Source of the DNA: Candidatus Auribacterota bacterium
GTDB lineage: Bacteria > Auribacterota > JAFGBW01 > JAFGJP01
Length of the DNA stretch: 29,122 nt
Reading direction: 5' to 3'
Assembly: GCA_016929035.1 (NCBI GenBank)
Contig: JAFGJP010000022.1
Coordinates: forward strand, 1 to 29,122
Both the position numbers and the translations under genes were made by a program. This document shows positions 3,040 through 28,953 of this stretch, one piece after another; position 1 is the first letter of the stretch; each line of letters begins with the position of its first letter. Under the pieces are notes generated by a model. That model did not search any database. It saw nothing but the letters and a program-made list of their open reading frames with translations, and had not been told where the DNA came from.

Positions 3040-3393
3040 CTACTTCATCCTTGGATGATTGTCATCATCCATGATAAGAATTCGAGGTTTCAAGGAACCG
3101 GCCTCTTTTTCATCAACCAGGGCAAAGGCAAGAATAATAACCCGGTCTCCCACTGCACCAAGACGGGCAGCTGCACCGTTAAGGCTTACAATGCCGCTTC
3201 CTTTTTTTGCCTTGATGAGATAGGTTTCGAAGCGGCTGCCGTTAGAAAGATTAGCAACAAGGACTTTTTCATATGCCTGCATGCCTGCCAGCGTCATAAA
3301 AGATTCATCAAGCCCCAGGCTGCCATCGTAGTTGATGTGACATTGAGTGATTGTCGCTTTATGGATTTTTGATTTCAGCTTGTGAATAAGCAT
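3040..3393 (-). CDS. panD: Aspartate 1-decarboxylase proenzyme
   Basis: K9, H11, G24-S25 self-cleavage site, R54, T57, Y58 and NGAAAR all at canonical positions. Confidence 0.97.
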   Translation of the reverse strand: MLIHKLKSKIHKATITQCHINYDGSLGLDESFMTLAGMQAYEKVLVANLSNGSRFETYLIKAKKGSGIVSLNGAAARLGAVGDRVIILAFALVDEKEAGSLKPRILIMDDDNHPRMK

Positions 3394-3416
3394 GGCTCAC
3401 CTCAAACAGATGTGTT

Positions 3417-3445
3417 AATATAGCAAAAGGAAAACTTCAGAACAA
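3417..3445 (-). promoter_or_regulatory. Putative sigma70 promoter of panD
   Basis: TTGTTC-N17-TATATT with extended -10 TG on the minus strand. Confidence 0.5.
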
Positions 3446-24995: not shown

Positions 24996-25110
24996 CAGAA
25001 AAGAGAAAAAAGAGAATAGAAATTAGATACAAGATTCATGATGCAGGATAAAAAAGGGGATCAGATTATTAGGATATCAGGGATAAGGATACCAGGACAT
25101 CGGAAATCAG
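24996..25110 (+). repeat. Stacked arrays: AGAAAAG/AGAGAAT heptads, GATACAA heptads (25026-25053), NNNATCAG octamers (25057-25110)
   Basis: GATACAA GATTCAT GATGCAG GATAAAA matches 8856-8890 minus one unit; the octamers match the reverse complement of 9158-9215. Confidence 0.85.
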
Positions 25111-25159
25111 AGAAAAGAGAAAAACTCGATGATTTATTTCGTCCTTCGTTTTTTTGCTT

Positions 25160-25204
25160 TAGCGGACTTAACGGTCTTAACGGACATAACCGACTCAACG
25201 GATA
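25160..25204 (+). repeat. Nonamer array (5 units) directly before trpF ATG
   Basis: TAGCGGACT TAACGGTCT TAACGGACA TAACCGACT CAACGGATA. Confidence 0.85.
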
Positions 25205-25206
25205 AC

Positions 25207-25854
25207 ATGAGCATTAAGGTCAAGATCTGTGGAATAACCAATATCAGTGATGCAGAGAGCATCCTGAAGTACAGACCGGATTTTTTTGGATTCATCATGT
25301 ACCCCAAAAGCCCGAGGTACATTAAGCCGAACCGGGTGAGGGATATCGTGGAACATGTCCACCGGCAGGTGAGAGCTGTCGGCGTTTTTGTCAATGAGGC
25401 CCCTGAGAACGTTCTTCATTACGCAAGGCTCTGTCATTTTGACTTTGTCCAGCTTCATGGCGATGAGACACAGGAAGACATCAGCTTCCTCAAGGTCCAG
25501 GGTCTCCGGGTCATCAAGGCGTTTCGCCTGAAAGATGAGACGGTCATTGAAAGCGCCCGTGACTTTATGTGCCGGTTTCTTCTCTTTGACGCCTTTAGAA
25601 GAGACCAGTACGGCGGAACAGGAGAAACGATCAACCAGGATCTTCTGACCTTTCTTTCAAAAGATGACGTGCTGCAGAAAAGGCGGATTTTCCTTTCCGG
25701 CGGGCTTCATTCAGGAAATGTCCGTGAAGTCGTTTCGCATTTTTATCCGTATGCTGTTGATGCGTCAAGCCAGCTGGAGTCCGCTCCCGGCATCAAGGAT
25801 ATTGCCAAGGTAAAAGCGTTTATCGAGGAAGTCCGCTCGATCCCGGAAGAATAA
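25207..25854 (+). CDS. trpF: Phosphoribosylanthranilate isomerase
   Basis: Start reassigned to ATG 25207 (MSIKVKICGIT); FGFIMYPKSPRYI, VGVFVN, VQLHGDE, LLFDA, GGTG, LSGGL, AVDASSQLE. Confidence 0.96.
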   Translation: MSIKVKICGITNISDAESILKYRPDFFGFIMYPKSPRYIKPNRVRDIVEHVHRQVRAVGVFVNEAPENVLHYARLCHFDFVQLHGDETQEDISFLKVQGLRVIKAFRLKDETVIESARDFMCRFLLFDAFRRDQYGGTGETINQDLLTFLSKDDVLQKRRIFLSGGLHSGNVREVVSHFYPYAVDASSQLESAPGIKDIAKVKAFIEEVRSIPEE

Positions 25855-25942
25855 TAAGGTACGCTGGCGCGCAGATCATTTTAAATTTAGCCACGAAGAG
25901 CACGAAGGGACACGAAGTTATTCGCACTTCGTGCGAATTTTT
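25853..25942 (+). repeat. 3'-end motif copy 2 plus CACGAAG-repeat/hairpin element copy 1
   Basis: AATAAGGTACGCTGGCGCGCAGAT, then TAGCCACGAAGAGCACGAAGGGACACGAAGTTATTCGCACTTCGTGCGAATTTTT (25888-25942). Confidence 0.85.
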
Positions 25943-25961
25943 GTCAGCCACATATCTGTTC

Positions 25962-26801
25962 TCATCCCATCTTTTTCTTTAAAACTTCTATGGACTGTTC
26001 ACTGAGAAGGAAGCGTTTGATCTTTTCTTCAGGAGACTGTTCTTTGTGCGGTCTCAACTTAAGAGATGCTTTCAGGTCGCGGATGATGTCTTCTTTCTGA
26101 ACTGAAAAATCGACGTCATCCATGCTTCTTATGCGGTCAAGAGTTCCATCTAATTTTTTCCTGTAACTCTCAAGTTCATCCTGGGACAAAAAGGGAAGCA
26201 TCTTTTCAATTCTCAGCATAAAACGGTCAAGGATAAAGGGCTTTCTTTTTGCATAAACGCTCTCAGGAAGTGTGCGGACTTTATCCAGCAGATCAGCTAT
26301 GGGCTTGCTGCTTCCAGCCTGGCCTACACGACCGTCCTGCAACTGGGGAATCAGACAGGGTGTAAATCCGTTAACAGCATAGATCTGATGTTCGCCAAGA
26401 TAATTTTTTATATCAAGGGCAAGTATCATGAGCTTTTTTTCTAACCGGTACTTTATGTCATCTATTTTTTCCTTGGACCGGTGGAAATCCTTTGTTGTCC
26501 CTTTGGTTACGACGACACGGCCTTCTTCGACCTCTTCCTCCAGCATGCTGTAAGCTTCGAAAAAATCCTCATAGTACGCTTTTACTTCTTTTTCCGTAGA
26601 CCTTCTTATATTCCTTGCTTCTTGCGCTTTTTCCAGGATAAACTCCAGCTGCTCCTGGCTCAGGCTGATGGCGTTGATAAAATTGGAAATCTGGATGCGC
26701 TCCACGATATTCTGAAGATCCTGGTAAGGACGCTCTTCTGAAAACGTTGTGCAGGGAAGGCTTAAAATGACAAGGCAGACAATAAGAAATACGTTTTTCA
26801 T
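25962..26801 (-). CDS. Hypothetical secreted alpha-helical protein (279 aa)
   Basis: Signal-peptide-like N-terminus MKNVFLIVCLVILSLPCTTFS; charged helical body; AAGGGG upstream. Confidence 0.8.
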   Translation of the reverse strand: MKNVFLIVCLVILSLPCTTFSEERPYQDLQNIVERIQISNFINAISLSQEQLEFILEKAQEARNIRRSTEKEVKAYYEDFFEAYSMLEEEVEEGRVVVTKGTTKDFHRSKEKIDDIKYRLEKKLMILALDIKNYLGEHQIYAVNGFTPCLIPQLQDGRVGQAGSSKPIADLLDKVRTLPESVYAKRKPFILDRFMLRIEKMLPFLSQDELESYRKKLDGTLDRIRSMDDVDFSVQKEDIIRDLKASLKLRPHKEQSPEEKIKRFLLSEQSIEVLKKKMG

Positions 26802-26873
26802 GGGAATCCCCTTTCTTTTTTAATGTCTGACTTTCTTATACGTTTAAGAAGAGAGGATATTTTAGAATTTTTA

Positions 26874-26987
26874 AAAAATTGCACGAAGTGCAATTAACTT
26901 CGTGTCCCTTTGTGTACATTTGGCTAATTATTTGATTATTGTGCGTAGCGCTCCTTATTTTTGATATTTGATTTTTTATTTTTAATT
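26874..26987 (-). repeat. AAAAATC heptads, 3'-end motif copy 3 and CACGAAG-repeat/hairpin element copy 2
   Basis: Minus strand after the asnB stop: AATTAAAAATAAAAAATCAAATATCAAA, AATAAGGAGCGCTACGCACAATAAT, then TAGCCAAATGTACACAAAGGGACACGAAGTTAATTGCACTTCGTGCAATTTTT (26926-26874). Confidence 0.85.
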
Positions 26988-28874
26988 TTATTGAAACTTC
27001 TCCATCCAGTACTGGAACATCAGGACGGCCCACAGCTTTTTCCTGTGGTCGTCTTTGTTATCGAGATGTTCTTTCTTTATGGCTTCGACGTAATCCGGGT
27101 TAAGCAGTCCCTGGCGGGAAATGTCTGAGGAATTCAGATACTTTTCTATTTCCTCTTGAAAAGCACTTCTCAGCCAGCGTGAAAGGGGCATGGCAAACCC
27201 CTGCTTGGGCCTCCCAATGATCGGTTGCGGTATCACCTTTTTGAAAGTTTCTTTAAGGATGTATTTCACGCGGTAGCGCCGGAATTTTTCAAAGTGAGGT
27301 ATCTGGCGGAATGCGTATTCCACAAGGTCGTGGTCCAGGAAAGGAGAGCGGACTTCCAGTGAGTTTGCCATGCTCGCGCGGTCCACTTTAACAAGGACTC
27401 CGTCGCGAAGGTAAAGCCTCGCCAGGTTGTACTGGAGAAGACTCACCTCATCCTCGTCTTTTCTAAGCATTATGTTTTTCTCGATATCCTCAAGAACGAT
27501 ATCCTGGATATTTTGAAGATGAAAGCCTGTCAGCCGGGAAAGTTCATCAAGTGAAAAAGAGCCGAAAAGAGACATTACCTGGGTCAATGGGTTTGGTAAG
27601 GAAAAGGAGTGCTGCAGTTTTTTCCCCATGTAGTTCCAAGAGGAGTAGGATTCGCTTGAATAAAGAAAAGGTAGGACTGCTTTCAGAAAAAAATTGAAAG
27701 ACGGCCTGCCTTTCCGGAAAAAGGAAAGGATTTTCAGGAGATGAAAACCCTGGTAGCCGGCAAAGAGCTCATCGCCTCCGTCTCCCCCGAGGACGACTTT
27801 GACATGCTGCCTCGCTTTTTCCGAAAGAAAATAGGTTGGCACAAGCGAGGGGTCGGCAAAAGGCTCATCAAGATAATCCTTGATCTTTTGAAGCGTCTCT
27901 CTAGCAGCATGTTCGGTCAGGATAAAGTGATGATGCTTTGTTTTGACTTCATCGGACATGAGGCGGGAATAGAATGACTCATCATAGGAATTTTCTTTAT
28001 AACCGATGCTGAAAGAGTGAAGATTTTTTTGGTGGCTGAGACGTTTCATGAGATAGGAGATAATGCTGGAGTCAATGCCTCCGCTTAAGAAAATACCGAC
28101 TGGCACGTCGCTTCGAAGCCTTTTTTCAACAGCTTTTTCAAGGTGAAAGAAAAGACTTTTTTTCCTTTCTTCAAAAGAAAGGGCTGGTTTTTTTTCAAAG
28201 AGAGGAATATCCCAGTACATATTCTCCTTGTATGATCGGCGCTCGATGTCAACAACAAGCGAGCAGCCTGCGGAAAGCTTGAAAAGAGAAGAAAACATCG
28301 TCTCCTTGCCGGGAATATAATCATAGAAGAAATATTTCATCAGGGCCCTGGAGTTCATTGACCCTGCAGAAGCAGGATGCGATCTTACAGCTTTCGGTTC
28401 TGAGCCAAAAACAAAAACGTCCGGATTCACCAGGTAATAGAGCGGCTTTTGCCCCATCCGGTCCCGGCCAAGAAAAAGGATTTTTTTTCTTTTATCGTAA
28501 AGGGCAAAGGCAAACATTCCGTGGATGTGACGTATGGCGTCAAATCCTTTTTCTTCATAAAGATGCACCAGCACTTCTGCATCTGAGCGCGTCTTAAAGA
28601 CGTGGCCCTTTGCCTGGAGCTCGTTCCGGCATTCAGTAAAGTTGTAAAACTCGCCGTTTTGAATAACGATGATCTCGTCGTCTTCGCTGGTGATGGGCTG
28701 ATGCCCGGTTGAGATGTCGATGATGCTGAGCCGCGAATGGGCCAGCCCCACACGCTCGTCCGTGTAGATGCCCGTGTCATCAGGGCCCCTCTGGCGAAGA
28801 GATGAGATCATGGGTTGGAGAAATGAAGGATCAAGCGTATTTTTAAAGTCGATGTATCCGCAAATGCCGCACAT
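26988..28874 (-). CDS. asnB: Asparagine synthase (glutamine-hydrolyzing) family amidotransferase, possibly surface-polysaccharide associated
   Basis: Start reassigned to ATG 28874 (MCGICG, Ntn Cys2); HSRLSIID, QNGEFYN, RDRMGQKPLYY, LSGGIDSS, GDGGDELFAGY, EVRSPFLD. Confidence 0.95.
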   Translation of the reverse strand: MCGICGYIDFKNTLDPSFLQPMISSLRQRGPDDTGIYTDERVGLAHSRLSIIDISTGHQPITSEDDEIIVIQNGEFYNFTECRNELQAKGHVFKTRSDAEVLVHLYEEKGFDAIRHIHGMFAFALYDKRKKILFLGRDRMGQKPLYYLVNPDVFVFGSEPKAVRSHPASAGSMNSRALMKYFFYDYIPGKETMFSSLFKLSAGCSLVVDIERRSYKENMYWDIPLFEKKPALSFEERKKSLFFHLEKAVEKRLRSDVPVGIFLSGGIDSSIISYLMKRLSHQKNLHSFSIGYKENSYDESFYSRLMSDEVKTKHHHFILTEHAARETLQKIKDYLDEPFADPSLVPTYFLSEKARQHVKVVLGGDGGDELFAGYQGFHLLKILSFFRKGRPSFNFFLKAVLPFLYSSESYSSWNYMGKKLQHSFSLPNPLTQVMSLFGSFSLDELSRLTGFHLQNIQDIVLEDIEKNIMLRKDEDEVSLLQYNLARLYLRDGVLVKVDRASMANSLEVRSPFLDHDLVEYAFRQIPHFEKFRRYRVKYILKETFKKVIPQPIIGRPKQGFAMPLSRWLRSAFQEEIEKYLNSSDISRQGLLNPDYVEAIKKEHLDNKDDHRKKLWAVLMFQYWMEKFQ

Positions 28875-28924
28875 GTCTTTTTCCGAGTGAACTATGAAAA
28901 ATAACTTTTTTACATTGAGTATAA

Positions 28925-28953
28925 ACTTTAATACAATCAATAAGAGAGTGCAA
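28925..28953 (-). promoter_or_regulatory. Putative sigma70 promoter of asnB
   Basis: TTGCAC-N17-TAAAGT on the minus strand, about 50 nt upstream of ATG 28874. Confidence 0.4.

Follow-up and report, generated by a model that had tools for sequence, protein, structure and literature searches.

The window is a 29,122-nt contig (C203) from a Candidatus Auribacterota metagenome-assembled genome (MAG), which comprises 327 contigs and 1.97 Mb, is 77% complete, and has 44.7% GC content. Two convergent genes in it, trpF (25129..25854, +) and an asnB-like asparagine synthase gene (26988..28940, -), are separated by a 1,133-bp segment that runs from stop to stop (25855-26987). The segment encloses a reverse-strand gene for a 279-aa protein (25962..26801), bracketed by two inverted copies of a composite repeat. 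Each copy has an outer hairpin, an arm of three heptamers of the CACGAAG type, and an inner hairpin followed by a T-run. On balance, the best reading is that the two copies belong independently to an intergenic repeat family with units of ~100 nt, which is lineage-specific, high in copy number, and built around a widespread triple-heptamer arm, and that they have a role at the 3′ ends of the genes that they follow.

Copy 1 (25849..25950, +) matches R1, a covariance model of the repeat, at 93.3 bits (E 2.2e-17), is included in alignment A1, and starts with the tandem stop TAA-TAA of trpF. A TAAGG motif (25855-25859) lies directly 5′ of the outer hairpin, which was read from the sequence as TACGC-TGGC-GCGCA with one A.C mismatch (25860..25873) and begins 6 nt past the trpF stop codon. 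The arm (25892..25917) consists of three exact CACGAAG units, at 25892, 25901, and 25911, with a period of 9–10 nt, purine spacers, and AGC-C in front. The inner hairpin, ATTCGCAC-TTC-GTGCGAAT, has its stem at 25920-25938, 66 nt past the trpF stop, and spans 25920..25943 with its T-run (-8.6 kcal/mol).

Copy 2 (26865..26963, -; R1 85.1 bits, E 1.7e-15; also in A1) lies downstream of asnB on its sense strand and upstream of the enclosed gene. TAAGG (26957-26953) again stands in front of the outer hairpin, AGCGC-TAC-GCACA (26940..26952), which keeps 3 of 5 pairs and has its nearest variant, TGTGC-TAC-GCACA, on contig C60 of the same genome. The arm, delimited by sequence and alignment at 26898..26923, has decayed to a single intact CACGAAG, the third unit (26904-26898), and the remaining two are degraded to CAAATGT and CACAAAG. 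Despite this, the inner hairpin AATTGCAC-TTC-GTGCAATT (stem 26895-26877, 93 nt past the asnB stop) and its six-T run are still perfect (26871..26895; -6.8 kcal/mol). Both inner stems have 8 bp with four G-C pairs and were called terminator-like.

The original prediction, made from the letters alone, described inverted CACGAAG copies at 25888-25942 (+) and 26926-26874 (-), with compensatory stem changes, a T-run after each copy, and a gene end (trpF, asnB) just before each. All of this was borne out, with both flanking genes confirmed by Pfam and the extent of each copy corrected from 55 to ~100 nt. The inverted pair 25901-25942/26873-26914 is 42 nt long, 88% complementary, and the single such pair found in the window by a repeat search. 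Its core, GCACTTCGTGC, occurs exactly twice in the window versus 0.27 expected, and the 14-mer GGGACACGAAGTTA has exact occurrences at these two sites only in the whole genome. Two pair positions differ between the stems, and both are compensated (T-A to A-T and C-G to T-A). The stem variants recur in other copies, ATTCGCAC on C192 and C158 and ATTGCAC/GTGCAAT on C60, so the compensatory changes that had been noted are covariation at the level of the family.

R1 was trained on 15 copies and, at E<=0.01, picked out 92 in the genome, many of which lie outside the training set (for example C173, C124, C80, C174, C250, and C29, all E<=1e-11). With 150 candidates scored per genome, the sole genome of the same family gave 10 matches and 23 other relatives within the phylum gave 0. 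The predicted dispersed module is thus real, and it is a family of ~100 copies in the genome rather than a two-copy element. The composite begins with TAAGG and an outer hairpin of the TGCGC-NNN-GCGCA type, followed by the AT-rich linker GATGATTATAAAATTTA, (A/G)CCAC with three heptamers, an inner hairpin of the TTCGCAC-TTC-GTGCGAA type, and a tail that is usually T-rich.

An nhmmer census, in which genes were crude longest-ORF (open reading frame) calls, found 113 matches, 106 (94%) of them intergenic, in a genome that is ~88% coding sequence. For 67 copies, the upstream gene shares the strand of the element, and for 28 it lies on the other one. In about 20, no more than 10 nt separate the stop codon from the start of the element; in three, the TAA of TAAGG is the stop itself. 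A scan for arrays of three similar 7-mers at 8–11-nt spacing with purine spacers recovered 57, compared with 1 in a shuffled genome; 50 are intergenic and 0 lie between divergent genes. The heptamers fall into the subfamilies CACGAAG, CACAGAG, CGCTAAG, CACTAAG, CATGAAG, CGCGAAG, and CACGAAT/CACAAAT. Two co-directional tRNA genes flank one full composite copy (C192:101-217, -), which has their orientation. At 55–82% identity, family copies give no hint of having been copied recently.

Copy numbers are lower bounds, because the genome is incomplete and its repeats are under-assembled. Contigs from the source run, which alone covers the locus, break inside both elements (25939 and 26955) with no joints, and read depth climbs from 9x to 55x and 146x across the repeats.

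Both helices covary. In the MAFFT alignment A1, 97.5% of inner-helix cells are paired and 5/8 pairs are changed on both sides; the outer helix is 72% paired, with 4/5 pairs changed on both sides (72–74% and 4–5 of 5 over both alignments). These values were reached for both helices together by 0/500 shuffles, a count that overstates independence since copies of one genome are kin, and slid controls gave 20–58% on A1 and 20–65% overall. In 46 model-aligned copies, to which the relative contributes six, 94.6% of the inner helix is paired and 6/8 pairs are compensated, in an alignment that leans to the model. Collecting further copies and testing their covariation, the check proposed with the original prediction and run here with a covariance model and shuffles, returned strong covariation for the inner hairpin. 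G.U pairs outnumber A.C mismatches on the sense strand (25 versus 12), which weakly supports a structure that is read on the sense transcript.

The family is almost only intergenic, mostly in sense near the upstream stop codon, and keeps both of its hairpins by compensatory change. Both window copies place a G+C stem-loop and a U-run downstream of a gene and in its sense, the features of an intrinsic terminator. Termination is plausible at these two copies and is not the sole constraint on the family. The inner hairpin and U-run of each copy would end the trpF and asnB transcripts or protect their 3′ ends. In copy 1, the hairpin is a likely intrinsic terminator or 3′-end hairpin of the trp operon; in copy 2, it is a likely asnB terminator that would insulate the enclosed gene. 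Lying a few bases beyond the stop codon, the outer hairpin may influence how translation terminates, an effect that stop-proximal repetitive extragenic palindromic (REP) sequences have in E. coli (PMC12306157). The inversion of the copies would follow from the convergence of trpF and asnB. The likeliest agent of the family's spread would be a small nuclease that recognizes the arm or the single-stranded hairpin, and the GxxExxY genes that have the same arms are candidates.

Several observations weigh against this interpretation. At least five T within 8 nt of the stem are found after 13/41 family hairpins, including both window copies, and family stems are short (-7 to -10 kcal/mol); termination therefore cannot explain hairpin conservation across the whole family. 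Neither of two metatranscriptome runs of the source study covers the locus. The copies have in common a 16-mer that is absent elsewhere in the genome, and no identical stretch shared by them is longer. The segment is absent in two relatives, as it would be if both copies had arrived in a single insertion. Element-bracketed genes show a mild enrichment, at 8 versus 2.9 +/- 1.7 expected (P ~0.01). With these points counted, independent members acting as 3′-end or terminator modules are still the account that we moderately favor for the window copies.

The arm is far more widespread than the composite. Exact triple CACGAAG arrays with 2–3-nt spacing number 16 in the genome and 0 in reversed-pattern controls, and several relatives of other families have 7–16. 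Among species-representative genomes, the arm occurs on at least 119 contigs, commonly as an inverted pair with its members 6–130 nt or ~400 nt apart. The matches listed include Acidobacteriota, Planctomycetota, Verrucomicrobiota, Chloroflexota (including Herpetosiphon aurantiacus DSM 785), and Desulfobacterota, as well as Heliobacteria, Nitrospirae, Proteobacteria, Bacteroidales, and others. No published description of the heptamer arms was found in a full-text literature search, and nothing on arms or repeats was found in the literature on GxxExxY, PDDEXK_3, and the IVS protein.

Fully palindromic forms of the element are present at C43:1392-1462 and 3341-3423, C74:1475-1559, and C306:4781-4860. 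Their layout is three CACTAAG, a hairpin TTTCGCAC-NNN-GTGCGAAA, and three inverted CACGAAG, so that the two arms of one element can bear different heptamers.

The genome has seven matches to PF13366 (GxxExxY/PDDEXK_3). Every PF13366 gene found, and the single PF05635 (23S_rRNA_IVP) gene, lies between inverted triple-repeat arms, at C306:2214-2564, C251:5311-5652, C234:5400-5741, C325:2103-2451, C76:2554-2664, C243:1-240, and C294:302-619. The C325 copy is frameshifted and directly follows a tRNA gene; the C243 gene is cut by the contig end, leaving the downstream arm alone visible. The units vary between cassettes and match at both ends of each (CACAGAG, CACGAAA, ACGCAGAT, CATGAAG, and CAAGAC). 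These cassettes and ORF-bearing intervening sequences (IVSs) of 23S rRNA have the same arm as the window, that is, inverted pairs of three 7-nt units with a 9–10-nt period after (A/G)CCAC. All three units are perfect in copy 1 and one is in copy 2, where the other two have decayed; the copies are 78% identical. Unlike the GxxExxY cassettes, the window has a 279-aa protein of secreted type as its cargo, with neither PF13366 nor PF05635, and its arms are embedded in the two-hairpin composite that is found in this genome family only.

One alternative is that the repeats are DNA-level elements only, with arms or hairpins recognized on single-stranded DNA by a nuclease or transposase, in the way of REP/RAYT or NTS/SsnA, and with no RNA role; T-runs and positions at gene ends would then merely reflect tolerated insertion sites. 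Stems of 7–8 bp with 3-nt loops do resemble the geometry of NTS/dRS3 and REP, the same arm crosses phyla, and a good T-run is present in only a third of copies. The genome also has the seven PF13366 matches, along with five genes of the Y1 type and three small ones of the GIY-YIG type. Against this alternative stand the orientation bias toward the sense of the upstream gene, the excess of G.U over A.C, the other, unrelated palindromes at the Y1 genes, and the divergence among copies, which speaks against recent copying. This alternative is considered unlikely.

A second alternative takes the inverted elements as the arms of one unit that inserted or flips the enclosed gene through cutting or recombination at the arms or hairpins, in the manner proposed for GxxExxY cassettes. 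The enclosed protein has a signal-peptide-like N-terminus and, by sequence searches, belongs to an uncharacterized family of ~280 aa. It matched no Pfam family above the cut-off, no nuclease domain, and neither PF13366 nor PF05635. A word-indexed search had returned the enclosed gene alone; an exhaustive search returned 560 cluster representatives at E<=1e-3, mostly ~280 aa. In the Atlas, the family comprises unnamed clusters from Omnitrophota, Chloroflexota, and Thermodesulfobacteriota and has no Pfam model. The gene is bracketed by the copies as originally predicted and is not the orphan that it had been taken for.

The flanking genes were used to compare the locus among relatives. The trpF ORF is listed with 241 aa (PF00697, E 1.7e-38); its true start is probably ATG 25208, ~26 codons further in, because homologs of 211–217 aa cover 88% of the ORF. 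The nearest named relative of TrpF is from a Candidatus Aureabacteria MAG (51% identity). The asnB product has Asn_synthase and GATase domains (PF00733 and PF13537). In the same-family genome (G001), TrpF is just 50% identical and the downstream neighbors are different, so metagenome contigs L204, L206, L207, and L209 were used for synteny. L204 and L206 encode TrpF proteins 58% and 63–64% identical to that of the window, followed by a convergent gene 51–52% identical to asnB; the ends of the two genes overlap by 4–6 nt, with neither gene nor repeat between them. In L207 (TrpF 56%), the next gene after trpF is a 47%-identical ortholog of the enclosed gene that shares the trpF strand, the reverse of the orientation in the window. 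L209 has a 51% ortholog, and the contig begins upstream of the gene inside an element-like outer hairpin and CCAC in sense. No R1 elements or inverted repeats were found flanking the loci in these four contigs.

The segment between trpF and asnB is thus variable among relatives, and the enclosed gene is absent (L204, L206) or inverted (L207), as the original prediction had suggested checking. Because these relatives are so distant, the change cannot be linked to the repeats.

Both the empty trpF/asnB junctions and the opposite strand of the L207 ortholog would fit an inserted or flipping unit, as would the 16-mer that is unique to the two copies and the mild enrichment of bracketed genes. The arm-bracketed PF13366 and PF05635 genes also share the geometry of the window, with the upstream arm in sense. 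Against this, TrpF identities of 56–64% make unrelated rearrangements equally likely, and the opposite gene orientation is seen solely in L207, a distant relative in which no R1 element or inverted repeat flanks the ortholog. The copies are not clearly each other's closest kin (copy 1-C163 82%, copy 1-copy 2 78%, copy 2-C60 77%), and 16 identical nucleotides are short for homologous recombination. No target-site duplication was seen by eye around 25855 and 26963. The cargo is no nuclease, and each copy already sits as solitary copies do, in sense and right behind a stop codon. Elsewhere, the genes between elements are unremarkable and encode a histidine kinase, a VIT-VWA protein, an MFS transporter, glycosyltransferases/sugar transferases, and an epimerase, and the enclosed gene is not a paralog of a bracketed 281-aa gene on C45. 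A single inserting or flipping unit is accordingly rather unlikely. An inverton with a local invertase was rejected, as the contig has no recombinase; in this 77% complete genome, PF00589 matches are on C269 and C21 only and PF00239 has none.

A broader version extends the idea to the family, with the composite elements as working ends at which a small GxxExxY nuclease recognizes the arm or hairpins and moves, deletes, or flips the DNA between two inverted copies. If so, ordinary genes like the one for the 279-aa protein would be mobile or invertible cargo at gene ends, and its absence in two relatives and inversion in a third would be explained. This proposal is quite unlikely.

A terminator/antiterminator switch, in which the 3′ half of the hairpin is captured by the third heptamer and termination is blocked under the control of some factor, is highly improbable: the alternative helix CACGAAGT/ACTTCGTG is predicted, and is even the minimum-energy fold of copy 2 (-9.5 kcal/mol), but it is 71.4% paired versus 72.2% in shuffled columns, with 0 compensatory changes, and was rejected for this lack of covariation. 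The two strands probably fit because the hairpin core itself contains one inverted heptamer (CACGAAG on the other strand), and copies with CACAAAT, CAGAGAG, or AACGAAG as third unit retain CTTCGTG in the hairpin. Family copies sit after stop codons rather than in 5′ leaders as an attenuator would, copy 1 lies between two convergent gene ends and therefore has nothing downstream to regulate, and a scan of the window at Rfam gathering thresholds gave no family match. Of the terminator/antiterminator-like module first described, the terminator half stands for the two window copies, as a covarying hairpin with a T-run in sense after a gene end; the pairing that would exclude the hairpin can be predicted and is not conserved. 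Such repeats should not be annotated as riboswitch-like attenuators.

REP/BIME and REPIN-RAYT sequences, close analogues of the family, are short, high-copy intergenic palindromes, often just after stop codons (PMC3116915, PMC3337134, PMC3733652, PMC12306157). Proposed roles include termination, mRNA stability, and translation termination, and their spread is thought to occur via a low-copy nuclease or transposase that recognizes the hairpin (PMC3116915, PMC3337134, PMC3733652). The family likewise consists of high-copy extragenic palindromes (92 matches, 94% intergenic). Unlike REPs, it has no GTAG or CGTC tag at either hairpin (consensus of A1 and A2), and its ~100-nt unit has two different hairpins flanking a triple-heptamer array. 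The gene that shares its arm encodes a PD-(D/E)XK protein (GxxExxY) and not a Y1 transposase as in REPIN-RAYT. Five PF01797 (Y1) matches were found in the genome (77% complete), with other palindromes in their flanks, and a RAYT was rejected as mobilizer because of these palindromes.

The nearest published logic for an arm with a small nuclease is the NTS/SRM system, in which SsnA, a GIY-YIG single-strand nuclease, is encoded by a gene flanked by the hairpin repeat that it cuts and that recurs around genes in hundreds of copies (PMC11893778). That system differs in its motif (CGTCATT...) and in the fold of its nuclease, and the gene flanked by the window copies does not encode a nuclease. Three small GIY-YIG genes (~91–97 aa) are present at C56:1316-1528, C146:57-257, and C209:474-674; neither such a gene nor a CGTCATT-type repeat is at this locus. 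Dispersed repeats of the CGTCATTGCGAG type (CGTCATT type), for example at C193:3549 and C218:2919, resemble the Ssn-related motif (PMC11893778). They are often stacked directly after heptamer arms.

A single composite copy, unlike a miniature inverted-repeat transposable element, has no terminal inverted repeats; positions 25855 and 26963 show no duplication, and none of the element-bracketed genes encodes a transposase. Correia- and ERIC-type dispersed repeats can carry intrinsic (Rho-independent) terminators. The family resembles them in that a repeat supplies a stem-loop and U-run to gene ends, and differs in its short stems (7–8 bp, 4 G-C) and in having a good U-run in about a third of copies. 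TAACTGA heptamer direct repeats of Beggiatoaceae and Cyanobacteria are intergenic and patchy across phyla, with a mechanism that is not known (PMC4679880). Like the arms, they repeat a 7-nt unit a few times between genes and are spread patchily across phyla; they differ in being contiguous, mostly just upstream of start codons, and without an inverted partner or hairpins (PMC4679880).

The locus thus joins a cross-phylum triple-heptamer arm, a lineage-specific composite of ~100 nt, and a gene that varies in presence and orientation. The composite puts two covarying hairpins at ~100 gene ends of a small genome. Should the hairpins terminate or stabilize transcripts, a single repeat family would supply this candidate-phylum bacterium with many 3′ ends. 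Should nucleases target the arms, there would be a testable DNA partner for GxxExxY, a large family of unknown function, and a new mechanism for rearranging genes locally would be plausible.

Further repeat DNA was noted in the window and elsewhere in the genome. After the T-run of copy 1, positions 25944-25961 read GTCAGCCACATATCTG, which corresponds to the (C)AGCCAC head of a further decayed arm. A TTT(A)TTCAGCC(A/G)C junction trails many family copies, indicating that elements are often stacked head to tail. Each of the two Y1_Tnp genes at C50:1914-2210 and C180:366-593 has a long perfect palindrome of its own on either side, such as CCATATTCTTCCACC-TACGA-GGTGGAAGAATATGG; they make up a distinct REP/RAYT-like system with no relation to the CACGAAG element. 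The trpC-trpF spacer (window 24996-25207) consists of purine-rich modules and ends in five 9-nt units of the GGNCTTAAC type (~25163-25205), which abut the likely trpF start codon. In L204 and L206, trpC and trpF overlap without a spacer, so the window spacer also looks like inserted repeat DNA.

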